From positions 1,034 through 65,033 of the forward strand of contig VMGX01000001.1 in NCBI GenBank assembly GCA_007376805.1: a stretch of 64,000 nt of DNA. Direction: 5' to 3'. Position numbers and translations under genes: made by a program. Each line of letters starts with the position of its first letter. Positions within the stretch are counted from its first letter, which is position 1. Origin of the DNA: Parcubacteria group bacterium Athens0714_16. GTDB taxonomy: Bacteria; Patescibacteriota; Minisyncoccia; Phycocordibacterales; 21-14-all-36-13. Below are positions 10,800 through 63,407 of the stretch, one piece after another. The notes beneath the pieces were generated by a model. That model had not been told where the DNA came from. It searched no databases and saw only the letters and a list, made by a program, of their open reading frames with translations.

Positions 10800-10931
10800 C
10801 CTGTAGTGAAAAATGGCATTGCTCTAAGAGAGCACGGCTATTTTTGTTGTTAATATTGATAAAATTTTTTCTCTTAAATTATACATTTTAATATTTTTTT
10901 TATTAATGCCATTTTCTACTACGGGATTCAT
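10800..10931 (-). mobile_element. Family A inverted-repeat mini-element, copy A1 (abuts tag ATG)
   Basis: Ends cctgtagtgaaaaatggcat ... atgccattttctactacggg plus attcat. Starts at the base after the tag start codon. Confidence 0.8.
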
Positions 10932-10948
10932 AACTTTTGTTGAACATT

Positions 10949-11173
10949 CTACAATTTTCCAATTTCTTTTAAATCTTTATCGGGTATATATAAAACTAAA
11001 AGACCAATCACAATCCCAACAATTCCACTATATAATGGGTTTATATTAAAAAATGAGTCAAAACTATCTAAAATATACCAAACACCACGCCAAACAAGAA
11101 CAAGCCCAATAACTACGGCAACATTTTTAGAAAAATAATTAATTAGAGATATTTTTTTTTGTTCTGTATTCAT
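10949..11173 (-). CDS. Small two-TM membrane protein
   Basis: 74-aa ORF with two hydrophobic helices. Its ATG abuts repeat A2. Confidence 0.4.
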   Translation of the reverse strand: MNTEQKKISLINYFSKNVAVVIGLVLVWRGVWYILDSFDSFFNINPLYSGIVGIVIGLLVLYIPDKDLKEIGKL

Positions 11174-11391
11174 CCTGTAGTGAAAAATGGCATTATTCTA
11201 AAAGAACGCGACCATTCTTACTATTAATACTAATAAAAAACTTATCCTGTGGTAAAATTATTTTTAATATTTTATATTTACGAGCTAATTTTATAAAAAA
11301 TATTACCTGCCCCGTGAAATTTAAAAACTATTTCACTGGGGTGGATTCAAAAGCTCATTCATCGCTTTTGAATTTTTACTACGGGATTCAT
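11174..11391 (-). mobile_element. Family A element, copy A2 (218 bp, carries extra nested hairpins; abuts ATG of 10949..11173)
   Basis: Same left end and the same terminal ctactacgggattcat. The interior has ccccgtgaaat/atttcactgggg and attcaaaagc/gcttttgaat hairpins. Confidence 0.75.
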
Positions 11392-11430
11392 ATATTTTAA
11401 TTATATTAAATAAATAGTTTGAACACAAAT

Positions 11431-11552
11431 CAAAACTCTCTAAATGAGAGTTTTGATCCATAATGCTTTGTTTTTTTGAAACTCTCTAAATGAGAGTTTT
11501 GATCCATAATGCTTTGTTTTTTTGTTTTTTTGAAACTCTCTAAATGAGAGTT
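11431..11552. repeat. Tandem repeat (about 46-54 bp x 2.5) of hairpin plus GATCCATAAT motif
   Basis: aaactctctaaatgagagttttgatccataatgctttgttttttt repeated. ORF 11430..11612 over it is spurious. Confidence 0.85.
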
Positions 11553-11622
11553 ATAAGTATTTAAATTTGATTTGTGTTTAAAAAGAAAACGGCCATTTGG
11601 CCGTTTTATCAATAAAAAAATC

Positions 11623-11910
11623 CTATTTCTGAGATGGTAAAATATTATTTTTTACCAAACTCGCAACAAACACTTCGTTGTCATCATTCCCATTGTCATT
11701 TTGCCCGGGAAAAAGACGAAAACAATTGTTGCTTTTACAATCAATCAAAAAACCTTTTCTTTGGACCAAACAGGAACAGACACAACATTTTTTTTCTTGT
11801 GGAAGTATAGTCCCAGCATTTATAGATTCTCTGGGTTCTCCTAAAACTTCCGAAACAATTCCCATAACATCTCTGAATGTTCCATCAGCAATTGCTTGGT
11901 TCAGATCCAT
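11623..11910 (-). CDS. Hypothetical Cys-rich protein
   Basis: 95-aa ORF with a CCVCSC...C..NNC cluster. Terminator at 11581..11610. Confidence 0.35.
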   Translation of the reverse strand: MDLNQAIADGTFRDVMGIVSEVLGEPRESINAGTILPQEKKCCVCSCLVQRKGFLIDCKSNNCFRLFPGQNDNGNDDNEVFVASLVKNNILPSQK

Positions 11911-12002
11911 AACTCCTCTCCTTGTGTATTTTGGTTTTTAACAAAACAACGGTTCTTTTTGAATATATCACTGTTTTTAAACAAAAACAAACTCTGAAAT
12001 AT

Positions 12003-12033
12003 AAAAACACACAACTTTCTGTTGTGTGTTTTT
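12003..12033 (-). terminator. Rho-independent terminator after the tRNA-Ala 3' segment
   Basis: acacacaac tttct gttgtgtgt with a U-run on the minus strand. Confidence 0.7.
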
Positions 12034-12040
12034 ATATTTG

Positions 12041-12053
12041 TGGACCAGAGAGG
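12041..12053 (-). other. Detached 3' segment of tRNA-Ala(UGC): T-stem 3' strand, acceptor 3' strand and discriminator
   Basis: CCUCU CUGGUCC A pairs with GGGGG (two G:U) and with GGGCCAG, giving G3:U70. A terminator hairpin follows at 12003..12033. Confidence 0.7.
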
Positions 12054-12165
12054 ACTCGACACAGGTCTCTAATTCGCTACGCTCATAAGAGCCTGTCGTC
12101 ACGACTCGGCGACAAGCACTCGCTTTGCTCGTCTTGTATACCGCCTCCGTCTTTCGAGTCCTAAC
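12049..12165 (-). repeat. Repeat X, distal copy (117 bp), ends in the true tRNA-Ala T-stem strand
   Basis: 116/117 identical to 15909..16025; the single difference is 12064 g versus 15924 a. Confidence 0.95.
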
Positions 12166-12312
12166 ACATCATATAAAACTTCAAACCGCTTGAAAAGCTA
12201 TCTTTCTAGATTTTGGATCTATTATAATTCAAGTCCAAAACTACAAAATATGCTTATAAATGCTTAAGGAGTTATTTATGAAAGGGGCACAAAGAGAGTA
12301 TTGAATTATTTA

Positions 12313-14052
12313 TCAACTAATTTTAAGTTTTTCTGCCCAGCAGTTTTTATTTTCTTCGTCTGGCACTGCAATTACCAATAATCTGCTCGGACGAGATATT
12401 GCCACATAGACATTTCTTAATTCTTCCTCTTCAGATATTTTACTGTTAGCTAACATAGTTTTGTAAGATTTCATCACTTTCTTTTTAAGAAATACAAGAA
12501 CTGCTTCAAAAGTTTCTCCTTTCACTTTATGAATTGTGCTAGGTCTATAGTCTGTTGGGACACTGTCAATATGTTCTTGTGGAAAGAGTTGAGAAAATTG
12601 TGCCTCCTTTAGGTTTTGATTTATTTTTAATTCAAATTCGTAATTTTTAGAACTAATGACTAAATTTGCTTCAGCTATCCACGCTCCAAGTCTAGTTGCA
12701 CTAACTGCTTTTGGGAGTAATTTTACAAATTTATATAACTCTTTTCTTAAGTTGCTAAATCCTCGTTCTTCAACAAACATATTAAAATTTTCTTCTGAAA
12801 AGTATGAGATGTTCTGTGTTGCCTTTAAGAAACCTCTTTCAATATATTTCATACCTCTAATAAAATCATTTCTATCATATAGGAACTTACCAAGAGCAAA
12901 ATCTCTGGTAAATGGAGATCCAACTAGCCAAGGACTTTCTCTATTGGGATTAGAGATAGCTTGTGTAAAAAAACTTTTTGACCTAAATAACACAGCTACA
13001 TTTTTAGGATTAAATTCAATACCATATTCCTTACACTTATTCTTGAAACTATTTAAGGTGGATTTTTTACCAGTAATAGTCTCCTCGTATGTCCATATTT
13101 CAGGACAGATATCACAGTCTTTTACTTTTTTATTAGTGGCAATGATTTTTCTTTCTCCTAATGAAGAAAAATTATAGACGACATCACATATTTTTTGTGA
13201 ACTACGCCAACTTTCATCTAGAATAATAGAATTGTTTTTCCAGTCCTGTTCTTTTTCTATGAATAAACTGGGTTTTGCGTCATTCCACTCAAATATAGCT
13301 TGATCTGGGTCGCCCACAATCATTATATTTTCCAAACCAGATTTTACAATAATATCTATGATTTGCATTTGTATTTCGGTGGTATCTTGTGCTTCATCAA
13401 TAATGAAAACAGGAAATCTTAAAGCCAATGATCTAGCAATTTTAGGATACTGCTCTAATATCTTTAATGCAAAATAGTTTGCATCTGCTTGAGTTGCAAA
13501 ACCCTTCTCATTAAAATCTTTCTTCATTTTTTGTAGTTTTTCATAATGACCATTCACTGTTTTTCCATTAGCATTTATTTTATTAGGAAAACCACCGAAG
13601 AAGTATTGAGCATCATTTTTTGGACACAAATCACCGTCTATTTTGTAACTAACTTTATCAAAGTATCTATTATAGTCTCTTTCATAAGCACCACCATTCC
13701 AAATACCGTATGGTTCTCCAACCATTATTGGGCGTTTTTCACAACCCAGAACAAGATGTCCAAACGGGAGAAAAATATATTGATTTATAAAACTATCAAT
13801 CGTGCCTAAAAAATGTGGGTAAGAAATGTGTGTATCAAAATCTTTTATACAGTTATCTCTTATTTCTTGCCAAGCAGTATTGGTAAAAGATATAGTAGCT
13901 ATACCTTTATATTCTTCAGTCCATTCAGATATTAACTTTGAGAATTTAGCTGAAACGCAGTATGTTTTACCGCTACCTGGACAAGCACGAACAACAAATT
14001 TTCCAGTTTTTCCTAAAACCTCTCTTTGTTTGTCTGATAATTTACTGAACAT
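12313..14052 (-). CDS. gajB: UvrD-like superfamily 1 helicase, GajB-like
   Basis: Walker A ACPGSGKTY, DEAQD box (FIIDEAQDT), and C-terminal VHKVKGETFEAVLV. It starts 3 nt after the gajA stop. Confidence 0.75.
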   Translation of the reverse strand: MFSKLSDKQREVLGKTGKFVVRACPGSGKTYCVSAKFSKLISEWTEEYKGIATISFTNTAWQEIRDNCIKDFDTHISYPHFLGTIDSFINQYIFLPFGHLVLGCEKRPIMVGEPYGIWNGGAYERDYNRYFDKVSYKIDGDLCPKNDAQYFFGGFPNKINANGKTVNGHYEKLQKMKKDFNEKGFATQADANYFALKILEQYPKIARSLALRFPVFIIDEAQDTTEIQMQIIDIIVKSGLENIMIVGDPDQAIFEWNDAKPSLFIEKEQDWKNNSIILDESWRSSQKICDVVYNFSSLGERKIIATNKKVKDCDICPEIWTYEETITGKKSTLNSFKNKCKEYGIEFNPKNVAVLFRSKSFFTQAISNPNRESPWLVGSPFTRDFALGKFLYDRNDFIRGMKYIERGFLKATQNISYFSEENFNMFVEERGFSNLRKELYKFVKLLPKAVSATRLGAWIAEANLVISSKNYEFELKINQNLKEAQFSQLFPQEHIDSVPTDYRPSTIHKVKGETFEAVLVFLKKKVMKSYKTMLANSKISEEEELRNVYVAISRPSRLLVIAVPDEENKNCWAEKLKIS

Positions 14053-17385: not shown

Positions 17386-18111
17386 ATGAACATTATTGAT
17401 TTTAGTACACCATTCAGAAAACAAAAGCGAGTACTTAAATTCATTAGATTTTTACTCAATGTTTTCTATGGTTTTAAGGTGATGGGTTTAGAAAACTTAG
17501 AAAAATTACCTAAAAACAAAGGCGTTATATTTGCGCCAATTCATTCGGTTTTTTTAGATGTTTTCTTTACTCCAGCGGCTCTTTATCAAAATCTTAATTT
17601 ATTACCCTTTTTTCATGTAATAAGAGAAAGAAGAGAATATAAACAAACTTTGCTAAAATGGATTTTGGGTGGAAAATTTATTAAAGGTTGGGGTGCTTAT
17701 TCTCTTTTATCACCTTTCCACAATACATTATTATCTTATTTTGAAAGCCTTAAAATTCACATAGAAATTCTGGAGGCGGGAAAAAGTTTGATAATTTTTC
17801 CCGAGGGTGCAGTGAGAAATGGAAAATGGGCTGTTAAAAACAAGAAAATACTCAAAGCTCAACCCGGCGTAGCAATACTTGCTTTTATTACAGGGTGTCC
17901 TGTTGTTCCAGTCCTTATAAAATTGAAAAACACAAAAAGCACTGGGCTTAAAAAATTTATTCCGTTTTTTGGCAAGGCAAGTGTTAAATTTGGAGAACCT
18001 TTATTTTTTGATCAATTATTTAACGGTGAATCAAATGGTGAAAATTTTGAAGATTTTTTAAATGCTTCAAAATTTATTGTTAAAAAAATTGATGAGCTAG
18101 GCGGTTTATGA
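17386..18111 (+). CDS. 1-acyl-sn-glycerol-3-phosphate acyltransferase family protein
   Basis: HX4D motif (PIHSVFLDV) and FPEGAV motif. SD AGGAG lies upstream. Confidence 0.7.
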   Translation: MNIIDFSTPFRKQKRVLKFIRFLLNVFYGFKVMGLENLEKLPKNKGVIFAPIHSVFLDVFFTPAALYQNLNLLPFFHVIRERREYKQTLLKWILGGKFIKGWGAYSLLSPFHNTLLSYFESLKIHIEILEAGKSLIIFPEGAVRNGKWAVKNKKILKAQPGVAILAFITGCPVVPVLIKLKNTKSTGLKKFIPFFGKASVKFGEPLFFDQLFNGESNGENFEDFLNASKFIVKKIDELGGL

Positions 18112-18126
18112 AAACCGCCTTTTTTA
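18099..18126 (+). terminator. Terminator of the first plsC paralog
   Basis: aggcggttt atga aaaccgcct tttttt. Confidence 0.65.
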
Positions 18127-18221
18127 ATTTTTGTAACACAACAAAAACACATGAATTAAGATGGTTGCTTTTTTCTTCCAAAAGAATAAGATTCATTCCA
18201 GATAATATAGGAGTTTGAAAT

Positions 18222-18968
18222 ATGAATAATAAGGTTAAATATTGTAAATTTTGGCCTTTGTTCTTACAACATTTGATTTGGATACCAACTAGAATTGCTT
18301 TAAAATTTTTTTTTGATTTTAAAGTAATTGGTTTAGAAAATGTAAAAAAGGTACCCAAAAAATATGGAATAATCTTTGCATCTAATCATGCGAGTGGTTT
18401 GGATCCGGTTTTCATTCCATCCGCACTTCCATTTTTATCAAGATTTCTTCCAACATACAATATGACTCGTGGGGAAGGAAAATTTTCATATAAAAATAAA
18501 CTTATGAATTTTCTCCTTGTAACCCTCAGGCCAATTTTCAAGTTGTGGGGTGCATATCCAGTATCGTTTTTAGTACATAAAACATTCGCGGGATATAAAA
18601 ACATACTGAGAACGCACATAAAGATGTTACATGAAAGAAAAAGTGTAATCATCTTCCCTGTTGGAGCAATAAAAGAAAGGAGAATACAAGAAAGGCCTGG
18701 CACCGGTATTTCATTTATTGCTCACACTGTTCAATGTAAAATAATCCCAACGAGAATTTGGATATATGGGCTTGATAAAAATGAAGGTATGACTCTTAAA
18801 AAAATTCTTTTGAGAAAATACAAGGTAAGAGTTTTTTTGGGAGAAATTTTAGAATCTGAAAATATTTTTTCCGGCGATGAAATAACTGAAAAAAATATGA
18901 CAGACGAGTATTTGTATACTGCAAATCAAATTGTTGATGCAATAGCAAAATTAGGCGACTCAAACTGA
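18222..18968 (+). CDS. 1-acyl-sn-glycerol-3-phosphate acyltransferase family protein (tandem paralog)
   Basis: NHASGLDP (HX4D) and FPVGAI motifs. The upstream region is nearly the same as that of 17386 (ataggagtttgaaatatg). Confidence 0.7.
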   Translation: MNNKVKYCKFWPLFLQHLIWIPTRIALKFFFDFKVIGLENVKKVPKKYGIIFASNHASGLDPVFIPSALPFLSRFLPTYNMTRGEGKFSYKNKLMNFLLVTLRPIFKLWGAYPVSFLVHKTFAGYKNILRTHIKMLHERKSVIIFPVGAIKERRIQERPGTGISFIAHTVQCKIIPTRIWIYGLDKNEGMTLKKILLRKYKVRVFLGEILESENIFSGDEITEKNMTDEYLYTANQIVDAIAKLGDSN

Positions 18969-26485: not shown

Positions 26486-27083
26486 TTATTTAACACATTC
26501 TCTAATTACAGAACAAAATTTTAAAAGTTCTTTTTTATCGTTTATAAGTCTTTCTCTCATACCACGACTTATTTCAATTTGAACACCTTTCAATTTGAAC
26601 ACCTTTCCCGGAGATACATTTGTTACAAATATTTTTAGGTGAATCGCCCATAACATTTTTTGTTGATTCAAGAACTTTAAACCCACCATTTGTTAGAACG
26701 TCTTCAATATCTTTAATAAGTGAGTAATCAAGTCCTCCCAACATAACAAAATCATCTAATTCGTGTTTTCCGTGTATTGAAATTACTTTTTTACTTTTAG
26801 AAACCAAATCAAGACATTTTGGTTCATCAAAAGTAGAACTTGAAACATGAAAAATTGTATTATTTTTTTCTTTTATTCCTTGAAAACTATAAAAAGCAAA
26901 AATGTTTCCAGCCAATTCTCTAGCAATTTCAGTTGTGTGTGGTTCTATTCTCCCGCCATGAATAGCAATTACAACACATGGTGTTTTTATGTCGTTTGTC
27001 TCAATTTGGAAATCAACACCCTCTGTCTCGTTTTCTTTTATTTCTTCAAAATTTTTGTATGTTCCTGACATTTTGTTCTCCAT
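26486..27083 (-). pseudogene. Poly-gamma-glutamate hydrolase-like (UPF0714/DUF867-like) gene, frameshifted by a 16-bp tandem duplication
   Basis: VVIAIHGGRIEPHTTEIARELA resembles that family. The reading frame ends at 26574 just after the duplicated 16-mer. Removing one copy joins it in frame to ORF 26486..26689 (..KGVQIEISRGMRERL..). Confidence 0.55.
26572..26603. repeat. 16-bp perfect tandem duplication (ttcaatttgaacacct x2)
   Basis: Read directly. It explains the frame change between ORFs 26574..27083 and 26486..26689. Confidence 0.9.
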
Positions 27084-27153
27084 TCAATGTTAAAAAACTA
27101 TTTTCAATGGTCTTTATATCACAAAATAATCATAAAAAGCAATTTTTCAAAAT

Positions 27154-27552
27154 TTATTTTTTTATTTTTTCTGCAATTTTAAGTTTACCAAGATAATATT
27201 GAACGCCCAATACGTGATTTGGCACATGCCACACGGCAACAGCTTGACCAGCTGAACGAGCTATAAATTTTGCAAAATCTGATTTAGATTTGCGAGCTGA
27301 CGCATGTGAGTCAAGTGAAAGTTTACGCACAGAGGGCATACCTAATTCCATTTTCCCCTGTGCCCATGCTCTGAGTAATTCTATAGCTTTGCGTGGATGT
27401 TTGTCTTTTGGATATTCCTTTTCAAAAATTGGTAGAACGCGCTCCACTTGTTTAACAACTTTGAGGGCTAATAATTTGTGTTCGTGTGAATTACGCACCA
27501 AAGATTTATAATCTTTAGATTTTGAAGGTTTTGAAAATTTTTTTGCTTTCAT
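27154..27552 (-). CDS. Hypothetical helical protein
   Basis: 132-aa ORF, basic N-terminus, no firm family assignment. Confidence 0.4.
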   Translation of the reverse strand: MKAKKFSKPSKSKDYKSLVRNSHEHKLLALKVVKQVERVLPIFEKEYPKDKHPRKAIELLRAWAQGKMELGMPSVRKLSLDSHASARKSKSDFAKFIARSAGQAVAVWHVPNHVLGVQYYLGKLKIAEKIKK

Positions 27553-27564
27553 TGGTTATTTTTT

Positions 27565-27596
27565 CTATTCTCTAATTCCGTTGGATTAGAGAATGG
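27565..27596. repeat. Hairpin family H2 (overlaps the arsR stop)
   Basis: ctattctctaattccgttggattagagaatgg. Confidence 0.8.
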
Positions 27597-27852
27597 ATAA
27601 AATATGTTTAATAAAAATATCATTTTTATCTGCTATAAAATAATATTGTTCCAAACCAACTTGTTCACTCTCAACAAAACCAGATGTTTTCAATACTTGC
27701 AGATGTCTAGATGTCGCATTGAATGATAGCTTCATTTTTTCTGCAATCACACCAACAGTGGATTTTGATTCTTTCGCCAAAAAATTAATTATTTCTAAAC
27801 GACGACGATTTGCTAATGCTTTGTATTTTCTTTCAACTTCACTATATTTCAT
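27586..27852 (-). CDS. ArsR-family winged-helix transcription regulator
   Basis: From ATG 27850-27852: MKYSEVERKYKALANRRRLEIINFL..STVGVIAEKMKLSFNATSRHLQVLKTSGFV. Its last codons lie inside hairpin repeat H2. Confidence 0.75.
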   Translation of the reverse strand: MKYSEVERKYKALANRRRLEIINFLAKESKSTVGVIAEKMKLSFNATSRHLQVLKTSGFVESEQVGLEQYYFIADKNDIFIKHILSIL

Positions 27853-27906
27853 ATTTAATATTATACAAAAATATATTATTAATAAAACCTTATACACATA
27901 TTATTT

Positions 27907-27938
27907 CCATTCTCTAATTCCGTTGGATTAGAGAATGG
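27907..27938. repeat. Hairpin family H2 (upstream of arsR)
   Basis: ccattctctaattccgttggattagagaatgg, 31/32 identical to 27565..27596. Confidence 0.8.
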
Positions 27939-27953
27939 AGATTTGTATGAAAA

Positions 27954-28415
27954 TCATTTTATAAACCCTCCGTGAAAAATTGCGTAATAAATAAGTTTCC
28001 CATCTTTCAGGATTTCTTCCCTTCCTTCAAATTTACCGAGTGTGCCTAAAGTGTTATTTTTATACTCATAATTCTCAATTTTAAAATTTTTTGGTCCGCG
28101 AACTGGAATAATGTCATCATAGTCTTGCGCAAGTGCTTTTCTTAAAAAAATGTAGATATCTTTCTCGTTCTCCTTTTCATCAATAATATATCCATTGTAA
28201 TTCATACCCCAAATTGGCTTTCCGTTTTCATATATAATTTCTTCGCCAATAAAATCGTGTGAACCGAAATATGTATCATGATATAAAAACTCTCCTTCTT
28301 TATATTCGTAATCTTTTGAACCAGATTTTTGCGAAGTAATTCTTTTTGCTTTTTCAGAAGCATAAGTATTTTTCTTCGCTGTCTTCAAAAAATTTGTTAG
28401 TTTATTTAAGTTCAT
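27954..28415 (-). CDS. Hypothetical protein (DUF5680-like, from memory)
   Basis: Start moved to ATG 28413-28415 (MNLNKLTNFLKTAKKNTYAS). Contains YHDTYFGSHDFIGEEII..GKPIWGMNYNGY. Confidence 0.45.
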   Translation of the reverse strand: MNLNKLTNFLKTAKKNTYASEKAKRITSQKSGSKDYEYKEGEFLYHDTYFGSHDFIGEEIIYENGKPIWGMNYNGYIIDEKENEKDIYIFLRKALAQDYDDIIPVRGPKNFKIENYEYKNNTLGTLGKFEGREEILKDGKLIYYAIFHGGFIK

Positions 28416-28932
28416 GGTTTTTGAGATTTCTGTAACCAATAATTGCAAACGGTATTGATATAATTTGAAGTATTAAAATTGAATAAGTTCCTAAAATGTA
28501 GGCATATGCGATTAAAATTATATGACCTGCTATATAGAGAAGCCAACCAATTGGATTTCGCAAAACTAAAAATACTGCACCAATGACAAACAATACAACC
28601 ATACTGTCTTCCAATACCCAATTTGGCGATCCTAAATTAAATAAAAAGATTACTACAATACCTATAATAGTTATACCACCCATAAGAAATGTGAGCCGTT
28701 TTTCCACTTTTTCAAATTTTTGCCATAAAAAAAATCCAAAAACAAATATAATGCCACTGGTAATTTCCAATATTGAATATGCAAAAGATCCTTTATGTAA
28801 AGTAACTAATGTAAAAGCAATTGAACCTAAAAATCCAAATAACCAACCCAATCTTTTTCCAGAACTCAAGAATACCTTTTGTATAAAATAAAAAATAGAA
28901 CCTAAAATTTCTATAATAACAAAATAATTCAT
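28402..28932 (-). CDS. Six-TM small membrane protein, possibly PnuC-like transporter
   Basis: 176 aa and very hydrophobic. The resemblance to nicotinamide riboside transporters is weak. Confidence 0.35.
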   Translation of the reverse strand: MNYFVIIEILGSIFYFIQKVFLSSGKRLGWLFGFLGSIAFTLVTLHKGSFAYSILEITSGIIFVFGFFLWQKFEKVEKRLTFLMGGITIIGIVVIFLFNLGSPNWVLEDSMVVLFVIGAVFLVLRNPIGWLLYIAGHIILIAYAYILGTYSILILQIISIPFAIIGYRNLKNHELK

Positions 28933-56814: not shown

Positions 56815-57141
56815 ATGACATTAAGACAAGAAAAAGTAAGGGGACTTATAACAGAGCTTTCTGCTGAATTTATACAATACCAAGCAAACACAAAATCAAT
56901 GATAACAGTTACTGATTGTAATGTTTCTAGTGATTTGAAAAAATCTACAATATTTGTAACTGTCTTCCCTGCTGAAAATGAAAAAGAAGCAATGGATTTT
57001 TTAAAAAGAAAACGAAGAGAGTTTAGAGAATTTATTAAATCAAAAATGAAGTTTATGAGAAGTGTTCCATTTTTTGATTTTGAAATAGATAAAGGGGAAA
57101 AGAACAGACAAAGAATTGATGAAATCTCAAATAAAATATAG
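56815..57141 (+). CDS. rbfA: Ribosome-binding factor A
   Basis: 108 aa, in the conserved position after infB, with the ITVTDCNVSSDLKKSTIFV pattern. Confidence 0.8.
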   Translation: MTLRQEKVRGLITELSAEFIQYQANTKSMITVTDCNVSSDLKKSTIFVTVFPAENEKEAMDFLKRKRREFREFIKSKMKFMRSVPFFDFEIDKGEKNRQRIDEISNKI

Positions 57142-57256: not shown

Positions 57257-57338
57257 GCCCGGGTGGCGGAACTGGTATACGCGCACGACTTAAAATCGTG
57301 TCCTGTATGGGATGCGGGTTCGATTCCCGCCCCGGGCA
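57257..57338 (+). tRNA. tRNA-Leu(UAA)
   Basis: GCCCGGG UG GCG GAACUGGUAUA CGC G CACGA CUUAAAA UCGUG UCCUGUAUGGGAU GCGGG UUCGAUU CCCGC CCCGGGC A. Confidence 0.9.
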
Positions 57339-57507
57339 CAAAGTAATTGGGGAATAAGCAAATTTCCTCCAGAGACGGACAAGTATTTGCTTATGTCGGG
57401 AATCGAATGATTTTTTATGTTGAGCGTAGCGAAACAAAAAATCACGGGTGAGCAAAGCGAAATTCCCCCTGCCTGCGCAGGCAGGGCCCCGGGCACAAAG
57501 TGATTGG
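57339..57507 (+). repeat. tRNA-Leu(UAA) 3'-flank element ending in a duplicate of the tRNA 3' end
   Basis: 57329..57350 (gccccgggcacaaagtaattgg) recurs at 57486..57507 with 1 mismatch. The interior has stems ATAAGCAAAT/ATTTGCTTAT, TGATTTTTT/AAAAAATCA and GGGAAT/ATTCCC. Confidence 0.8.
57467..57486. repeat. GC-rich hairpin H3 (perfect 7-bp stem) inside the tRNA-Leu(UAA) flank element
   Basis: ccctgcctgcgcaggcaggg. Confidence 0.75.
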
Positions 57508-57562
57508 AGAGAAAACAAATTCAAAATGTTTTTTTGATTTTTTAATTAAAAACTTTTTATAT

Positions 57563-57635
57563 CCGCCCGTAGCTCAGTTGGTAGAGCAGCTGCCTCTTAA
57601 GCAGACGGTCGTAGGTTCAAATCCTACCGGGCGGA
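57563..57635 (+). tRNA. tRNA-Lys(CUU), C1:G72 acceptor
   Basis: CCGCCCG UA GCUC AGUUGGUA GAGC A GCUGC CUCUUAA GCAGA CGGUC GUAGG UUCAAAU CCUAC CGGGCGG A. Confidence 0.85.
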
Positions 57636-57778
57636 CATGAAGTGTCCTGCGCGAGAAAACAAATTTATTTGTTTTTGTGTAGGATTTGAAAGGAATTTCG
57701 TTATTGAGTCCGAGTTTTTGCAAGGACGAAATCGAAATTCACCAGCGACCGTTGGGCGAAAATCCTACCGGGCGGACA
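57636..57778 (+). repeat. tRNA-Lys 3'-flank element ending in a duplicate of the tRNA 3' end
   Basis: 57619..57637 (aaatcctaccgggcggaca) recurs exactly at 57760..57778. Confidence 0.85.
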
Positions 57779-57838
57779 AAAAATAGTATAGTGGTCATAA
57801 AATATAAGTTTATTTTCAATTATTTTTTTAAATTAATA

Positions 57839-57868
57839 TTGGCAAACGCTATGTGTCTTAGGTATAAT
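57839..57868 (+). promoter_or_regulatory. Promoter of the LAGLIDADG gene (TTGGCA-N18-TATAAT), probably giving a leaderless transcript
   Basis: ttggcaaacgctatgtgtcttaggtataat. The ATG is 6 nt downstream of the -10 element. Confidence 0.55.
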
Positions 57869-57874
57869 ATAAAT

Positions 57875-58507
57875 ATGGAAAGATTAAAAAAAGTAAAAAT
57901 AAAATGGAGTGCAAATTTCGCTTATGCAATTGGTTTAATTACTACTGATGGTAATTTATCGCCAGATGGAAGGCATTTAAACATCACATCAAAAGATTTA
58001 AAATTGATTACGGATTTTAAAAAATGCCTCAATATCAAAAATAAAATTGGAAAAAAAGCACGAGGACATAGTAAAGAAAAAAAATATTTTGTTGTACAAT
58101 TTGGAGATGTTAATTTTTATGAGTTTTTGTTATCTATAGGATTAATGGCAGCAAAATCAAAAACATTATCTAAAATAGATATACCTAAAAAATATTTTGT
58201 TGATTTTTTAAGAGGATGTATAGACGGGGATGGGAATATTAGTATAAGTTATCATCCAGAAAGTAAACACCCGCAATTAAAAATAAGATTGGCTTCTGCA
58301 AGTTTAAATTTTCTTGAGTGGATTGAGAATGAAGTTTATAAACATATAAAAACAAACGGTGGTTGGATTTCTAAAGATAAATCAGTGTTTACTCTAAATT
58401 ATGCTAAAAAGGACTCTGTTAAATTATTAAAATTCATGTATTATAAAGGAGATTATTATTATTTAAAAAGAAAGTATCGGATTGGAAGAATGTTCTTAAA
58501 TAAATAA
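57875..58507 (+). CDS. Free-standing LAGLIDADG homing endonuclease (double motif)
   Basis: FAYAIGLITTDGNL and FLRGCIDGDGNI motifs. ATG 57875 lies 6 nt after TATAAT (57863-57868), so the mRNA is probably leaderless. The track start at 57686 overlaps tRNA-flank sequence and is rejected. Confidence 0.8.
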   Translation: MERLKKVKIKWSANFAYAIGLITTDGNLSPDGRHLNITSKDLKLITDFKKCLNIKNKIGKKARGHSKEKKYFVVQFGDVNFYEFLLSIGLMAAKSKTLSKIDIPKKYFVDFLRGCIDGDGNISISYHPESKHPQLKIRLASASLNFLEWIENEVYKHIKTNGGWISKDKSVFTLNYAKKDSVKLLKFMYYKGDYYYLKRKYRIGRMFLNK

Positions 58508-58526: not shown

Positions 58527-58607
58527 GCCGGGGTGGCGAAATGGTAGACGCGCTACGCTTAGGACGTAGTTTCGAAAGGAGTGGAGGTTCAAGTCCTCTC
58601 CCCGGCA
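58527..58607 (+). tRNA. tRNA-Leu(UAG)
   Basis: GCCGGGG UG GCG AAAUGGUAGA CGC G CUACG CUUAGGA CGUAG UUUCGAAAGGAGU GGAGG UUCAAGU CCUCU CCCCGGC A. Confidence 0.9.
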
Positions 58608-58758
58608 CATGAACGAAGTGAGAGTGACGAGAGTAAACAAATTTATTTGTTTGCGAGAGAGGATTTGAAAATCTTTTCGTTATTTATGAAGAGCTTTGCT
58701 CTGAATAAATCGAAAAGATGAACAGAATCTGTAAGATTCAAGTCCTCTCCCCGGCACC
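58608..58758 (+). repeat. tRNA-Leu(UAG) 3'-flank element ending in a duplicate of the tRNA 3' end (distal copy followed by CCA)
   Basis: 58588..58608 (ttcaagtcctctccccggcac) recurs exactly at 58738..58758. Homologous to the Lys element. Confidence 0.85.
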
Positions 58759-58811
58759 AGTAGTAACTTGTTGAAAATTGAAAATTAAAAAATTAAAATA
58801 AGAAATTTGCT

Positions 58812-58834
58812 TTGGCAAACGCTATGTGTCTTAG
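58812..58834 (+). promoter_or_regulatory. Second copy of the 23-nt promoter-like box, with no gene behind it
   Basis: ttggcaaacgctatgtgtcttag is identical to 57839..57861, followed by catatag. Confidence 0.4.
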
Positions 58835-58898
58835 CATATAGAAACAATCTTAGCAAAAAATAAGCTTAATTGAAAGATTTGAATGTTCTTTAAAAAAC

Positions 58899-58925
58899 AA
58901 AATCCGCATAATGCGGATTTTGTTT
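58899..58925. terminator. Hairpin terminator between the tRNA cluster and the pilin-like array
   Basis: aaaatccgcat aa tgcggatttt with flanking A/T runs. Confidence 0.65.
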
Positions 58926-58949
58926 TTAAATTTCAAATTTAAATTTTGT

Positions 58950-59186
58950 TTATGCTCCTATTGTATTTTTTATGATTCCTATAATCCCATAAACAGCAAA
59001 CATGATAAACATCCCGACTATTCCCCATATCATATGTTGCTTACCCTGTTCTCTTTGTTCATCACTATCAGCCTTTATAACATACTGGGTAACTCCCCAG
59101 ATGAAATAAATCAGCGCAAAAACAAAAAGTAAGAGTATTATCGGATTTATTATTTGATCACTTATTTTATTCAATAGGTCTGTCAT
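58950..59186 (-). CDS. TrbC/VirB2-like small two-TM protein (paralog 1, no signal peptide)
   Basis: Shares ...A.SDEQREQGKQHMIWGIVGMFIMF with the five genes upstream. Confidence 0.5.
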   Translation of the reverse strand: MTDLLNKISDQIINPIILLLFVFALIYFIWGVTQYVIKADSDEQREQGKQHMIWGIVGMFIMFAVYGIIGIIKNTIGA

Positions 59187-59226
59187 AAATATATAATTTC
59201 TATAAGCCTAAGACTTTTATACTTTT

Positions 59227-59583
59227 CTAGTAGGTTGTGCCTGGAAGTGTAACAGTTGTGTCTGCGTCTCCTGGTACTTCAAGTGTTCCTTGTAGTAAGT
59301 AAACTACTCCCCAGACTGAAACCATAACAAACAAAGCAATTATCCCGTATATCATTATGCTTTTTCCTTCCTTTGCTTTTGCTTCATCTCCCGCATTCAA
59401 GATATATTGTGCAAGGCCGTAGAAGAAATATAGAAGAGCCAATGTCATAATTATAGGAACAAGTGTATCAATCCATCCTCCTACTTTTTCAATTATAGTC
59501 AATGGAGCATTATCATTAGTAACAGCAAGAGTAACAAATGGTAATAAAAACGCCATTGAAGATATTGATAGTATTTTTTTCAT
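59227..59583 (-). CDS. TrbC/VirB2-like small membrane protein (paralog 2)
   Basis: Signal peptide, TM, NAGDEAKAKEGKSIMIYGIIALFVMVSVWG. Confidence 0.55.
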   Translation of the reverse strand: MKKILSISSMAFLLPFVTLAVTNDNAPLTIIEKVGGWIDTLVPIIMTLALLYFFYGLAQYILNAGDEAKAKEGKSIMIYGIIALFVMVSVWGVVYLLQGTLEVPGDADTTVTLPGTTY

Positions 59584-59656
59584 AATTATTATTATTTACT
59601 AATTGTTAATTTAAATTTTACGACCTTTTTTATTTTACACAATAACGTGTTAATAA

Positions 59657-60004
59657 TTAATCGACTTGTATGGTTGGAACTGTCGGCGATATTGATTCTG
59701 TTACTCCAAACGTTCTCTGTAGAAAACCAACCAATCCCCACACTGAAATCATAACAAACAAGGCAATTATTCCATATATCATTATGCTTTTCCCTTCTTT
59801 TGCTTTTGATTCGTCCCCCGCATTCATAATATATGTTGCAAGACCATAAAAGAAGTATAAAAGGGCTAAGGTCATAACTATGGGAACAAGCGCTTCAACC
59901 CATGCTTGTAATTTCCCAATCAAAGTTTCGGCCGTTGTTGAATCGGCTGCAAATAAAAATAATGGAGCTAAAAAAATTGATGATACTAAAGCTATTTTTT
60001 TCAT
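59657..60004 (-). CDS. TrbC/VirB2-like small membrane protein (paralog 3)
   Basis: From ATG 60002-60004 (MKKIALVSS). NAGDESKAKEGKSIMIYGIIALFVMISVWG is nearly identical to the core of paralog 2. Confidence 0.55.
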   Translation of the reverse strand: MKKIALVSSIFLAPLFLFAADSTTAETLIGKLQAWVEALVPIVMTLALLYFFYGLATYIMNAGDESKAKEGKSIMIYGIIALFVMISVWGLVGFLQRTFGVTESISPTVPTIQVD

Positions 60005-60177
60005 AATATTTTTGTGTTTTTTTAACACATTTTTGATTAAAATCTCCTAATTTTTTTATCAAAAGATTATATTAATAATAATGTAATAAAGCCCTTTAAT
60101 CAATAATAAACTGTGGATTAAACAGACATAATTCTTTAAAATCTCATTAAGAGATTTTAAAGTCAAAGATTTTCAAA

Positions 60178-60492
60178 CTAAATACCAAATGTTTTTCTGA
60201 GAACACCCACCAGCGCCCAAATCGAGAAAATAACAAACAAACCAACTACCCCATAAAGCATTTTATTTCTACCCTCTTCTAATGCCTTCGTATCTCCTGC
60301 AGAACGAATAAATTCTGTAAGACCAAACAAAAACCATAAAAAAGAAAGACTGATTAGCAATGGAACAATAGAATTAATTAAAAGTTCTGCCGTGCTGTTT
60401 GCTATCTCTTTAAAATTACTTCCCGTTATAGTTGCCGCGCCAACAATCGAAGGTATCGTAAAAGAAAAAATGAGTAAGATTATTTTTTTCAT
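60178..60492 (-). CDS. TrbC/VirB2-like small membrane protein (paralog 4)
   Basis: Signal peptide, SAGDTKALEEGRNKMLYGVVGLFVIFSIWA. Confidence 0.55.
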   Translation of the reverse strand: MKKIILLIFSFTIPSIVGAATITGSNFKEIANSTAELLINSIVPLLISLSFLWFLFGLTEFIRSAGDTKALEEGRNKMLYGVVGLFVIFSIWALVGVLRKTFGI

Positions 60493-60562
60493 GATTTTGA
60501 TATATTGTAAATATTAAAAAATTTAACACCCTCCTTTAAAAGCTCTGGACGAGCTTTTAAAG

Positions 60563-60937
60563 TTATTTAAGATTATTAATAGTTCCACTAACAACAGCAG
60601 CTATCAAATTTGCCCCCAAAATAACAGCCGCGCCAATAACAACATAAAGTAATATTTCTTTTGCTTTTGTTATTTCTTCTGGCTTCCCCTGGGCCTTCAC
60701 AAACAAAAAACCAGCATAAATTATAAAAAATATAATTACCACACTACCTATGGGTGTCACTATATCTGTCAAAATTTTTGTTATTAGAGCCGGAACGGTT
60801 TTGGTTGTGCCCAGCGGATTAGTTAATTGTCCTGTCACATTTACATCCTCAGCATTAGCCCAGTATAAAGGAAAAAGCAACAAAAAAGATGCCATGCCCC
60901 ATGCTACTATTTTAATTTTTTCTATTTTAAAATACAT
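60563..60937 (-). CDS. TrbC/VirB2-like small membrane protein (paralog 5)
   Basis: AQGKPEEITKAKEILLYVVIGAAVILGA. Same architecture, more divergent. Confidence 0.5.
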   Translation of the reverse strand: MYFKIEKIKIVAWGMASFLLLFPLYWANAEDVNVTGQLTNPLGTTKTVPALITKILTDIVTPIGSVVIIFFIIYAGFLFVKAQGKPEEITKAKEILLYVVIGAAVILGANLIAAVVSGTINNLK

Positions 60938-60989
60938 ATTTTTTAATTGTTAAATCTATTAATTTAAATTAAATATTGTGAGTTAAATA

Positions 60990-61415
60990 TTATTTTAAAA
61001 CTTTTAAATAACTACCATCAATAAGTAATGCGTTCGCAATTGTATTAACGATAAGCCACGCAGCTAAAACTATAATAAATCCTATTAAAACATTCAAAAA
61101 AATTGTATGGGCTTTTTCTATTTGTCCCGGTTTCCCGCCGGCTGTTAAATATAAAACACCTGCATATGTAAACATTCCTACCGCAATTGGAGCAGCTATA
61201 TAAAAGGCAAATGTCATTATATTTTGAACAAGTGTTATCATGTCATTAAAACCACATCCACCGTTTGCATTTGTGCAAGTAGAAGCATCAATTATACCAT
61301 TTGGTGGTGGCGGAGCAGTTTCTGTCGCAAATAAGATAACTGGACTAAGTAATATAAATAACAAAACCAAAAACATTGGCAAAAAAAAGAGAATTTTTTT
61401 ATTTTTATTTATCAT
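60990..61415 (-). CDS. TrbC/VirB2-like small membrane protein (paralog 6)
   Basis: TAGGKPGQIEKAHTIFLNVLIGFIIVLAAW. Same architecture, with a Cys pair in the exposed segment. Confidence 0.5.
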   Translation of the reverse strand: MINKNKKILFFLPMFLVLLFILLSPVILFATETAPPPPNGIIDASTCTNANGGCGFNDMITLVQNIMTFAFYIAAPIAVGMFTYAGVLYLTAGGKPGQIEKAHTIFLNVLIGFIIVLAAWLIVNTIANALLIDGSYLKVLK

Positions 61416-61438
61416 ATTTTTAATTTATTTTGTAAATA

Positions 61439-62776
61439 TTATCGGCTTATGGGCTCTCCAGAAATTTTTGATGTCAAATTTTGTATCTCCATACTTGCTC
61501 TTTTAATAGAATCACTCACTCTAAATCTACTGGAAGTAACATTTTCAATCATATCTTTAAATATTGTGTTTGTCTCCGTAGAACTTGGATCCAACCAAGC
61601 CTTACCAATTATAGCAGAATCATAAAAAACACCCCTGTATGCATCTACCTGTTTTTCAGCAAGCAATGTTCTTTTTACTGGAGGCAAATTAAAATATTTG
61701 CTAAACAATAAAGAAGCATCGTCTCCAATTAAATAGCCGGCCACATTTATAACACTAGTTACATTAGCAGAACTTTTTAAAGCCGCTATGGCATTCATAT
61801 TTGCAAATGTTTTGTTTATTTTACTATTTCTTATTTGTGGTAATTTTGCTACATCAAAATTAAGGTTTGGATTTTTTTGTCTTAACACATTCAACTCGCT
61901 TGAAAAACCAAAATAAAATGCAAGATTACCAGCCAAAAATTCTTTTGAAGAATTACTGATTGATCTATTCCACGTATACATTTCCTTTGATGGATTTGAA
62001 AACTCGGTATAAAATCTAATTGCTGATTCTGTCGCGGGTACAACATTTCCTGTTTTTTCATCCAGCGCACTCTGAACTTTATTGTTAATATTTCTTGTTG
62101 TTACTAAATTACCGGCTTGCATAATTAATGCAGAAATAATTTCTTTAGCATTGTTAACATTGCTAAATTCACCGAATGCAATTGTTTCTCTCTGTAAATT
62201 TTGTGCATTATCTTTTAGAGTAATTTTTTTGACCATTGAATAAATTTCATCCCAATATACCGGCGGTTTAACAATTCCCGCATTTGATAACATATCTCTA
62301 TTCCAATACATAACCAGTGGGTCAATCGTAATTGGAAATGCTATAACGCCTTCATTGTTTAAAAAAATCTCTGCACCTTCTACAAAACTATCTTTAAAAT
62401 TTCTTTCAGAAAAACTAGAAAATGGAATACTAAATATTTTATTTTCGTATTTTAAAATTTTATCCTGAGAAAGAATAATCGCGTCTGGCCCAACACCTGA
62501 GGCAATGGCCTCTATTAATTGGCTATCAAAATTTTCTTTATCAATTTGTTTGTAGTTTATTTTAAATGGTGTTAAATCACTTGATCCAATTTCATTTGAA
62601 ATTTGATTGAATGTGTTTTTGTCCATTGTACCCCACAAAGATATTTCTGCCGTAATGATGCCCGAGTTTGGTTTTTGTGTCGCAAAGAAAATAACGCCAA
62701 TGACGGCAAAAACTGCGAAAACTGCAATTACTATTGTTTGAAAATTTTTCACCCCGTTAGAGATAGAGAGCCCCAA
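61439..62776 (-). CDS. Membrane-anchored extracellular solute-binding-protein-like protein
   Basis: N-terminal TM anchor, then a ~400-aa periplasmic-binding-protein-like sequence. Assignment is by overall pattern only. Confidence 0.5.
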   Translation of the reverse strand: MGLSISNGVKNFQTIVIAVFAVFAVIGVIFFATQKPNSGIITAEISLWGTMDKNTFNQISNEIGSSDLTPFKINYKQIDKENFDSQLIEAIASGVGPDAIILSQDKILKYENKIFSIPFSSFSERNFKDSFVEGAEIFLNNEGVIAFPITIDPLVMYWNRDMLSNAGIVKPPVYWDEIYSMVKKITLKDNAQNLQRETIAFGEFSNVNNAKEIISALIMQAGNLVTTRNINNKVQSALDEKTGNVVPATESAIRFYTEFSNPSKEMYTWNRSISNSSKEFLAGNLAFYFGFSSELNVLRQKNPNLNFDVAKLPQIRNSKINKTFANMNAIAALKSSANVTSVINVAGYLIGDDASLLFSKYFNLPPVKRTLLAEKQVDAYRGVFYDSAIIGKAWLDPSSTETNTIFKDMIENVTSSRFRVSDSIKRASMEIQNLTSKISGEPISR

Positions 62777-62876
62777 GCTCTCGTTGATTAATTAATAAAT
62801 TGCGACTTTTTAATTTAATTTTATATTTATTCATTATATTTGATAAATTATTACTCTGTGCAATCTCTAGCGGGGT

Positions 62877-63407
62877 TCATTGATTTTTTCTCAAAATAAA
62901 CCCGTAATGATATTCTCCAGCAGAAATCTTTTTTTCAACCAAAAAACCAGCTTCTTCTAAAAGTTTTTTCGCTGTTTCTTCTAATACAATACTTTCTTCT
63001 GAGGGGCCTATACCACCAAAAGAACCACTCCATTCTATAAAAAGTAGTCTTCCTCTTGATTTTATTATTCTAAAAACTTCTTTTAAAAAAGATTTCTTAT
63101 TTTCTACTTGAAAAAAAAGATTTGAAACAATCGCCGCATCGACTGATTCATTCCCCAAACGAGTACCATTTTCCTTTTCTGCATCACCCCAAATTATTTC
63201 TATGTTGAAAATATTGTTTTTTCTGGATTCGTTTTTTATTTTTGACAATAAATCGTTTTGAATATCAATTGCATAAACAACTCCGAGCTCTCCAACTTCC
63301 TTTGCTGCGGCAAAACTATTAAAACCAGAACCGGCACCAATATCAGCCACCTTCATTCCGTGACTTAAATTAAATTGTTTTATGTTGTTCTGTGGATCTA
63401 TAAACAT
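62877..63407 (-). CDS. Class I SAM-dependent methyltransferase
   Basis: Motif I VADIGAGSGFNS, motif II AIDIQ, post-I acidic residue. Confidence 0.75.
   Translation of the reverse strand: MFIDPQNNIKQFNLSHGMKVADIGAGSGFNSFAAAKEVGELGVVYAIDIQNDLLSKIKNESRKNNIFNIEIIWGDAEKENGTRLGNESVDAAIVSNLFFQVENKKSFLKEVFRIIKSRGRLLFIEWSGSFGGIGPSEESIVLEETAKKLLEEAGFLVEKKISAGEYHYGFILRKNQ

Follow-up and report, generated by a model that had tools for sequence, protein, structure and literature searches.

Here, an operon is described in which six consecutive genes of the T4SS (type IV secretion system) pilin family PF18895 follow a gene for a membrane-anchored solute-binding protein (SBP), which is itself preceded by a methyltransferase gene. 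The operon occupies positions 58950-63407 of the minus strand in a 64,000-nucleotide stretch of contig VMGX01000001.1 (the whole stretch is referred to as the window) from Parcubacteria group bacterium Athens0714_16 (GCA_007376805.1), a member of the Patescibacteria that a published survey lists in the class Paceibacteria with a genome of 632 kb and 649 coding sequences (PMC12102498). The methyltransferase-SBP-pilin unit is a conserved chromosomal operon of this class. Published arrays (PMC12102498, PMC10633639) mean that the pilin array itself is already known in Patescibacteria; the operon, with its fixed order of paralogs, is unreported as far as the searchable literature shows, and a full-text literature search found no report of a link between an SBP and pilins. 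The favoured interpretation, with a probability of roughly 0.55, is that the pilins of the operon make up a heteromeric module to which a ligand-binding protein is attached, run by a T4SS whose VirB4 is encoded at a distance.

Organisation of the operon

All eight genes point in the same direction. The first (62877-63407) encodes a class I S-adenosylmethionine-dependent methyltransferase of 176 aa that matches the Pfam families Methyltransf_31, Methyltransf_11 and Methyltransf_25 and belongs to no specific NCBIfam family, all of its matches there being far under the cut-offs. A gap of 124 nt, containing a promoter-like site, separates it from the SBP gene (61439-62776), whose open reading frame (ORF) spans 445 aa; a start at the GTG at 62752, giving 437 aa, is most likely because orthologues begin 'MxxFQ'. 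The pilin genes are numbered p1 to p6 in transcription order, and pilin types are numbered g1 to g6. They comprise p1 (type g1, 60990-61415, 141 aa), p2 (type g2, 60563-60937, 124 aa), three genes of middle type, namely p3 (of the g3/4/5 clade, 60178-60492, 104 aa), p4 (59657-60028, 123 aa from a GTG or 115 aa from the ATG at 60004) and p5 (59227-59583, 118 aa), and finally p6 (the leaderless type g6, 58950-59186, 78 aa). From the SBP gene through p6 the successive intergenic gaps are 23, 52, 70, 173, 73 and 40 nt.

The operon ends at a Rho-independent terminator on the same strand (58887-58927), a 16-bp hairpin followed by a U-run with a folding energy of -19.4 kcal/mol (z -6.5), and none of 200 shuffled sequences was equally stable. 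Two further hairpins of 12 bp, both on the minus strand and both lacking a U-tract, lie within the array, one after p2 (60534-60562, -16.1 kcal/mol, z -4.2) and one after p3 (60134-60162, -13.4 kcal/mol, z -3.8). Terminator scanning and folding identified them as near-identical palindromes of the form CTTTAAAA.CTC...GAG.TTTTAAAG. They may act as intercistronic mRNA stabilisers or attenuators, or they may belong to a small repeat family, and through them the promoter-proximal and promoter-distal genes may be held at different mRNA levels.

Conservation of the operon in Paceibacteria

One genome per GTDB species was scanned for the SBP, which yielded at least 519 genomes with a relative; the best 80 of these loci were analysed in detail, using hidden Markov models (HMMs) built from the window and three relatives, and related loci are designated by L-numbers (L002, L005, L009 and so on). 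Relatives found with p1, at 63%, 59% and 39% identity, share the arrangement gyrA, methyltransferase, SBP and five or six pilins, and the downstream neighbourhood is the same as in the window, i.e. IF-2/RbfA, cysteine desulfurase and ClpB. A pilin gene directly follows the SBP gene in 74 of the 75 loci that have downstream sequence, often with a 4-nt overlap, and a methyltransferase homologue directly precedes it in 59 of 74, again often overlapping by 4 nt. The original prediction had linked the array to a binding protein on the strength of this one locus, and conservation across the class makes that link much stronger than this locus alone could tell.

The composition of the array is equally regular. 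Among the 53 complete arrays (those with at least 4 kb of downstream sequence) the number of pilin genes ranges from four to eight, with five in 14 arrays, six in 20 (the mode) and seven in 17. The array starts with g1 in 48 of the 53, has g2 in second place in 46 and ends with the leaderless g6 in 48, so that the order is fixed: a Cys-pair type, a TrbC-like type, two to five middle types and a leaderless type. SBP-pilin loci span the Zambryski-, Taylor-, Wolfe-, Campbell- and Kaiserbacteria lineages, and the SBP is better conserved than the pilins.

Flanking families in the related loci are either housekeeping or variable, the latter including SPFH proteins, MurJ and IS200-like transposases. 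In about 30 related loci (L012-L090) the first convergent gene past the array encodes an SPFH/Band-7 membrane-scaffold protein of approximately 390-430 aa, and 11 loci have an IS200-like Y1 transposase a short way upstream of the SBP gene, at approximately the position of the methyltransferase. The upstream gyrA contains an intein (PF14890) in one relative (L002 3897-7538 and L003 3951-7592), where the product is 1213 aa long, while the gyrA product of L005 is 819 aa long and has no intein.

The six pilin-family proteins

All six proteins pass the gathering cut-off of PF18895 (T4SS_pilin, 26.6 bits), a family of T4SS pilins built by Pfam largely on Patescibacteria, with scores of 51.3 (p1), 38.9 (p2), 31.7 (p3), 48.2 (p4), 41.8 (p5) and 44.9 bits (p6). 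With six consecutive PF18895 genes at gaps of 40-173 nt, the locus is an array as defined in PMC12102498 (at least two PF18895 or PF04956 genes, in tandem or one gene apart), and HMMs made from p1-p6 found no other match among the ORFs of the window. None of the six reaches the gathering cut-off of the TrbC/VirB2 family PF04956: p2 alone matches it, at 25.1 bits (E 2.1e-5) and thus under the 27.9-bit cut-off, while p1 and p3-p6 give no match; p2-type orthologues have a likewise weak TrbC match of 21.5-22.8 bits. The NCBIfam family NF045849, with a curated cut-off of 40 bits, is matched by p6 at 41.8 bits, whereas p1-p5 fail the cut-off with 15.6-25.7 bits.

A hydropathy scan and alignment revealed a Sec-type leader with an AxA-like site in p1-p5 and, after it, a pair of hydrophobic helices with a short loop between them that is rich in K/R and D/E. 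p6 consists of the two hydrophobic helices alone, and two hydrophobic segments only are likewise found in 52 of 55 g6 orthologues. In p1 the signal peptide is followed by an ectodomain with a Cys pair and then by the two-helix hairpin, which the AlphaFold2 model places at residues 56-91 and 96-132 with a core pLDDT of 78-91; C47 and C54 are invariant across the orthologue alignment, and at least two Cys residues are present in all 65 g1 orthologues, while most other pilin types have none. p2 is distinguished by an NP(L) motif ahead of helix 1, of which the NP is retained in 64 of 68 g2 orthologues, and by a segment of hypervariable length between the signal peptide and that motif. Subfamily HMMs indicate two clades, {p1, p2} and {p3-p6}. 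Within the second, p4 and p5 have in common the core NAGDE[AS]KAKEGKSIMIYGIIALFVM and are 83% identical over a 60-residue core, with divergence at both ends.

Most of this was anticipated by the original prediction, in which six consecutive minus-strand genes of 78-141 aa were said to share one architecture. All six ORFs, and with them that of the SBP, exist at the coordinates given there, the signal peptide in p1-p5 and the two helices around a charged loop agree with that description, and so do the near-identical core with differing ends of the paralogs it numbered 2 and 3 (p4 and p5) and the lack of a leader in the last paralog. The T4SS-pilin family of Patescibacteria that it named is the one that the HMM check identified, and the source of the DNA within the Patescibacteria fits that assignment. 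Its description of the loop between the helices as exposed is not supported. Considering the positive-inside rule and the solved VirB2 and TraA pili, the K/R-rich loop is more likely to be cytoplasmic in the membrane and lumen-facing in a filament, and the exposed, variable parts of the pilins would be their N- and C-termini.

Orthology and selection

Each array position has its own orthologues. Across three relatives, identity to the orthologue is 65%, 72% and 45% for p1 and 76%, 67% and 39% for p2; p3 has 1:1 orthologues in L002 (63%) and L005 (52%), and p6 is 92% identical in L002, 74% in L005 and 47% in L009. Paralogs within one genome are 17-46% identical. Nei-Gojobori estimates of dN/dS are 0.07-0.30 for pilin orthologues, 0.11-0.19 for the SBP and 0.15 for the methyltransferase, values that are reliable in direction only because dS is 0.6-2.4 and so near saturation.

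Only p4 and p5 depart from this pattern, as both best match a single 'p4' gene in L002 and in L005; they are lineage-specific duplicates of one middle-type gene. Between the two, dN/dS is 0.09 in the core and 0.89-0.98 in the N-terminal parts and C-tails. With a dS of approximately 1 in the core, the similarity of the cores does not stem from recent gene conversion.

The original prediction had envisaged a multi-variant repertoire and suggested a test for diversifying selection between the paralogs. Diversifying selection across the array was rejected, the estimates being those of purifying selection, and only the tails of p4 and p5 are near-neutral. Fast turnover, a lack of stable orthologues and positive selection, the hallmarks of antigenic variation, are likewise not what the array displays: it has 1:1 orthology at fixed positions and a dN/dS of 0.07-0.30. 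Old 1:1 paralogs under purifying selection argue against an interchangeable repertoire and for a heteromeric assembly with exposed tails that are free to vary. The fixed order and the orthology argue that these arrays encode the parts of an assembly and not antigenic variants.

The solute-binding protein

By domain and fold the SBP is an ABC solute-binding protein (SBP_bac_1/SBP_bac_8). It scores 51.2 bits against SBP_bac_8 and 45.2 bits against SBP_bac_1 in Pfam (cut-offs 27 and 26), and its AlphaFold2 model (pLDDT 89.8) matches maltose-binding protein and other sugar SBPs in Foldseek at E values of about 1e-22. The closest solved sequence relative is 4r9f, 'MBP1' (E 7e-16), the mannan-oligosaccharide binding protein of Caldanaerobius. 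With MalE and 4r9f the SBP has in common the SBP_bac_1/8 domains and a periplasmic-binding fold of type II, and its alignment to 4r9f runs over the full length, but identity is only 15-18%, no permease or ATPase gene adjoins the SBP gene, and pilin genes follow it, one of them being fused to it in one species. A single transmembrane segment (residues 8-36) lies at the N-terminus, in agreement with the membrane-anchored, binding-protein-like gene of 445 aa that had been predicted upstream of the array. That placement was right; the heading of the original prediction, in which the array was 'followed by' this gene, was not, since the SBP gene precedes the array in transcription order.

The family is large and uniform. 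At least 1944 matches were found, the best 120 of which are 45-100% identical to the SBP (45-76% without the query's own copy), and a library of 1.84 billion proteins contains 1036 representatives of 50%-identity clusters at E <= 1e-30, of which the best 150 are all 419-460 aa long. Neither the operon, nor the rest of the window, nor the conserved flanks of the 80 loci yielded a cognate permease or ATPase.

Gene fusions

Several related loci contain fused genes, and these bear on the topology of the pilins. At L089 (8986-10668), from a Tayloriibacteriota metagenome-assembled genome, the SBP continues in frame into a g1 pilin, with scores of 470 bits against the SBP HMM, 63 bits against the g1 HMM and 22.4 bits against PF18895. 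The SBP domain is followed by a short linker, a Cys...C-DF motif and the two helices, with no second signal peptide, which is consistent with both fused parts lying on the outside. At L070 (4722-6347) the protein in the p1 position is 541 aa long and consists of a signal peptide, a Peptidase_S8 (subtilase) domain, the p1 motif and the hairpin, while in L077 and L082 (approximately 10285-12341) p1 and p2 bear N-terminal ectodomains of 200-300 aa that have no Pfam match. L064 (11559-12290) combines two pilin hairpins within one ORF. Taken together, the fusions point to an N-terminus of p1 and p2 that is probably extracellular and able to present functional domains, and to an SBP that probably works next to p1.

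Other genes of the window

The Pfam scan of the window took in almost every listed ORF that reaches 110 aa and does not lie inside a larger gene; an RbfA-like ORF (56815-57141) was outside this set. The ORFs with matches are mostly housekeeping genes, including DnaE, ThrRS, SerRS, TopA, RelA, ClpB, ParB and Obg as well as DnaX, TGT, DprA and IF-2, and GC content is even throughout. VirB4, VirD4, VirB6, a pilus ATPase and an ABC permease or ATPase were all absent from the scan results, which agrees with the original prediction, where no VirB4, VirD4 or type IV pilus ATPase was seen in the window. Table S1 of PMC12102498 gives 'Presence of VirB4: Yes' for GCA_007376805.1, so VirB4 is encoded elsewhere in the Athens0714_16 genome.

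Just past the operon, on the plus strand, the genes for tRNA-Leu(taa), tRNA-Lys(ctt) and tRNA-Leu(tag) each have an exact second copy of their 3' end 123-146 nt downstream, forming elements at 57257-57510, 57563-57861 and 58527-58834. With an exact repeat of at least 14 nt as the criterion, 32 of the 179 tRNA genes in the window and 90 loci have a copy of their own 3' end, from the T-loop onward, 98-201 nt downstream; the tRNA-Cys of the window is among the 32 and was discounted, since the match of its T-arm to the tRNA-Leu next to it looks like chance. The repeat occurs with tRNA-Leu(tag) in 14 of 43 cases and also with Lys, Leu(taa), Ser, Cys, Glu and Trp tRNAs, at loci that include L002, L005, L013, L019, L032, L038, L063, L068 and L084, and the copy follows each species' own tRNA sequence. 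L002 and L005 appear to have two tandem units.

The spacers between tRNA and copy are homologous between tRNA types and between distant species. They hold a box complementary to the T-loop/T-stem of the host tRNA, which co-varies with tRNA type, together with a hairpin, another hairpin that is long, and a conserved stem-loop, GTAC.GAxxCTGTAAGxxTC, that shows compensatory changes. Rfam gave no matching family at E <= 1, and a paper on tRNA introns in Patescibacteria deals with group I introns of the anticodon loop only and does not describe the 3'-end repeat. The repeat could represent either a structured 3'-trailer RNA or a small mobile element that inserts site-specifically and duplicates its target. 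Flanked by the tRNA-Lys element and tRNA-Leu(tag) is a free-standing LAGLIDADG homing-endonuclease ORF (57876-58507 on the plus strand; the ORF as listed is 57686-58507). Immediately before it stands a 23-nt box, TTGGCAAACGCTATGTGTCTTAG, which is found again at 58812, behind the tRNA-Leu(tag) element, and L002 has a LAGLIDADG ORF in the same position.

Elsewhere in the window, and within a reduced genome of 632 kb, there is a complete Gabija anti-phage system (12313-15924, minus strand), with a GajA of 622 aa (AAA_15 and OLD-type TOPRIM; PADLOC E 1.8e-153) and a GajB of 579 aa (UvrD-like helicase; E 3.5e-184). Clustered genes at 26574-28448 (minus strand) code for a protein resembling poly-gamma-glutamate hydrolase, an Imm5-like immunity protein and a DUF5680 protein, and may form an islet related to immunity or toxins. 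Two tandem paralogous PlsC-type acyltransferases of 241 and 248 aa (17386-18968, plus strand) are notable in a presumed lipid scavenger.

Discussion

Under the favoured interpretation, p1-p5 would be exported by Sec and cleaved by signal peptidase, and p6 would be inserted into the membrane without a leader, all six adopting an N-out/C-out hairpin with the basic loop in the cytoplasm. They would then be built into a single heteromeric structure, each paralog at a place of its own and none an interchangeable variant, and this structure would be the pilus or stalk module of a Patescibacteria T4SS of MPF-FATA type, energised by the VirB4 encoded at a distance. Extracellular domains would be displayed on p1, and in some species also on p2, as on a base or anchor; the SBP beside p1 would be the ligand-binding part, most likely for a carbohydrate-type ligand on or from the host cell, and the methyltransferase may modify a component of the assembly. 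To our knowledge, a heteromeric pilin structure would differ from every characterised VirB2 pilus.

Membership of PF18895 is solid, and a working of p1-p6 in the manner of VirB2 pilins is suggested by their architecture, by weak HMM links, by the match of p6 to a protein of integrative and conjugative elements (ICEs) of Mollicutes and by the context of such genes in Saccharimonadia. Like p1-p5, VirB2 of Agrobacterium and TrbC of RP4 (PF04956) are small and have a leader and, behind it, two hydrophobic helices around a short loop. The canonical Gram-negative T4SS, however, has one major pilin and a VirB5 tip protein encoded inside the virB operon, whereas the unit described here has five to eight conserved paralogs and no VirB5, belongs to a monoderm and lies away from virB4. 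p6 aligns end to end with the Mbov_0395/MMCAP2_0565 family (NF045849), its residues 2-76 corresponding to positions 6-80 of the 80-position model, and both are leaderless, about 80 aa long and from monoderms; the Mollicutes protein sits in a mobile conjugative element, while p6 is in the chromosomal core with no relaxase. The match fits the MPF-FATA ancestry that has been proposed for the VirB4 of Patescibacteria.

Two published data sets provide the closest comparisons. Quinonero-Coronel et al. (2025, PMC12102498) counted 441 arrays of VirB2-like genes, each with 2-11 members that are on average 25% identical to one another, among 383 assemblies of Patescibacteria, and their data set includes the source genome GCA_007376805.1. 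Those arrays are tandem PF18895/PF04956 genes, like the array in the window, but the study centres on genes near virB4, from which the array in the window is distant, and 'solute-binding', 'substrate-binding' and 'SBP' have no occurrence in its main text. In Candidatus Southlakia epibionticum ML1 (Saccharimonadia), six PF18895 genes (SEML1_0014-0019) lie within the T4SS cluster and each was scored essential by transposon sequencing (Wang et al. 2023, PMC10633639), a result highlighted in a 2025 review (PMC12857230). This array resembles the one in the window in family, in its number of genes (of 104-186 aa in Southlakia), in combining divergent sequences with one fold, in the weak TrbC matches of some members and in being chromosomal with no relaxase. 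It adjoins VirB6-, VirB4- and PrgI-like genes, with no SBP or methyltransferase reported, whereas the array in the window is apart from virB4 and joined to both, and essentiality is established for the Southlakia array only.

Several observations weigh against a T4SS role for the operon. T4SS component genes are absent from the neighbours within approximately 9-10 kb of the unit in the 80 loci. VirB4 is listed for six of the seven operon-bearing genomes that were cross-referenced to the table of PMC12102498, the source genome included, as dependence on VirB4 would lead one to expect, but this co-occurrence is weak evidence because most Patescibacteria have VirB4, and the draft genome Greene1014_15 (L076) has the operon and is listed as VirB4-negative. 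Alignment by hhalign to a narrow Rhizobiales VirB2 profile of 20 sequences is colinear over a pre-helix motif and both helices, with NNICTFILGPFG in VirB2 aligned to TKILTDIVTPIG in p2 and NKISDQIINPII in p6 ahead of helix 1, but at probabilities of 0.7-4.4%, i.e. below 5% throughout, and P-values of 0.083 (g2), 0.0094 (g6) and 0.011 (g1). A search of PDB sequences with profiles of the p2 and p6 types brought up no pilin, the TrbC score of p2 is under the cut-off, and Foldseek with the p1 model returned from the PDB only generic helical hairpins, none at E <= 0.001, for a fold too simple to discriminate; among the shapes closest to it are hairpins of membrane proteins, ATP synthase subunit c for instance. 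No visualised T4SS pilus is reported for any Patescibacterium in the literature consulted on T4SS. Furthermore, the SBP::pilin fusion is a single case in 80 loci, with none among the best 150 family representatives, and as such is supporting evidence short of proof.

These points lend some weight to a different machine, in which the SBP and the two-helix proteins form a T4SS-independent uptake channel or sensor of the envelope, six hairpins supplying 12 transmembrane helices and 'pilin' being no more than a family name. Such a machine is unlikely, although it is the alternative to be taken most seriously: the unit never adjoins virB4, no ABC permease or ATPase that could serve the SBP is encoded nearby, the SBP surpasses the pilins in conservation and shares translational coupling with them, and to this can be added the draft genome listed without VirB4, the statistically weak similarity to real VirB2 and the subunit c hairpins among the structural neighbours. 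It is at odds with the PF18895 genes of Saccharimonadia, which lie inside a T4SS cluster and are essential with it (PMC10633639), with p6 passing the cut-off of a conjugation family, with VirB4 in six of seven cross-referenced genomes and with the unit itself, which encodes no energising component. A more tentative proposal is that the operon encodes an organelle for substrate capture and not a pilus for secretion or conjugation. The SBP, seated on the first pilin, would hand a host-derived molecule to a heteromeric VirB2-like conduit, which would be either a T4SS in import mode or a T4SS-independent channel of six two-helix subunits; the cargo would be a glycan or perhaps the head group of a glycerophospho-lipid or some other building block that the cell scavenges.

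That the SBP is an ordinary ABC-importer component with partners elsewhere, sharing a transcript with the pilins without functional coupling, is improbable. Its fold and sequence are of the sugar type, transmembrane-anchored SBPs are usual in monoderm bacteria and mixed operons are frequent in reduced genomes, but chance sharing of a transcript does not sit well with SBP-pilin adjacency in 74 of 75 loci over several lineages with overlapping stop and start codons, with the in-frame SBP::p1 fusion of L089 or with the absence of a permease from every conserved flank. A variable surface repertoire for antigenic or host-range variation is very doubtful. It is offered in PMC12102498, where Bartonella and Anaplasma VirB2 arrays, likewise tandem paralogs in host-associated bacteria, are cited as having been read as antigenic variants. 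The paralogs within an array are indeed only 17-46% identical, as that survey reports for such arrays, the copy number of the middle type varies from two to five across species, the tails of p4 and p5 have a dN/dS near 1 and the p2 segment before the NP motif is hypervariable in length. The fixed order and type-specific motifs and the 1:1 orthologues at each position, with a dN/dS of 0.07-0.30 over deep divergence, nevertheless point the opposite way, and the individual essentiality of the six S. epibionticum genes (PMC10633639) would be unexpected for interchangeable variants. Hardly any credence can be given to the idea that an integrated conjugative element beside the tRNA cluster left the array behind or carries it as cargo, even with duplicated tRNA 3' ends and a homing-endonuclease ORF immediately downstream and a match of p6 to an ICE protein family. 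An origin from a mobile element was rejected on the grounds that distant species have the same housekeeping surroundings (gyrA upstream and IF-2, RbfA, cysteine desulfurase and ClpB downstream), that no relaxase, integrase, coupling protein or VirB4 is nearby and that GC content is uniform in the window.

The role of the T4SS in Patescibacteria has been described as 'completely unknown' (PMC11665869), while in the sole species tested epibiotic growth requires both the T4SS and its pilin array. The co-transcribed SBP, which is conserved over a class that ranks among the most represented of the Patescibacteria in the published data set and is occasionally fused to a pilin, offers a handle on this role, as the ligand of the SBP and its contact with p1 would indicate what the machine recognises or moves. 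If substrate capture were to prove true, the operon would provide the biosynthesis-poor Paceibacteria with a dedicated uptake route from the host surface.

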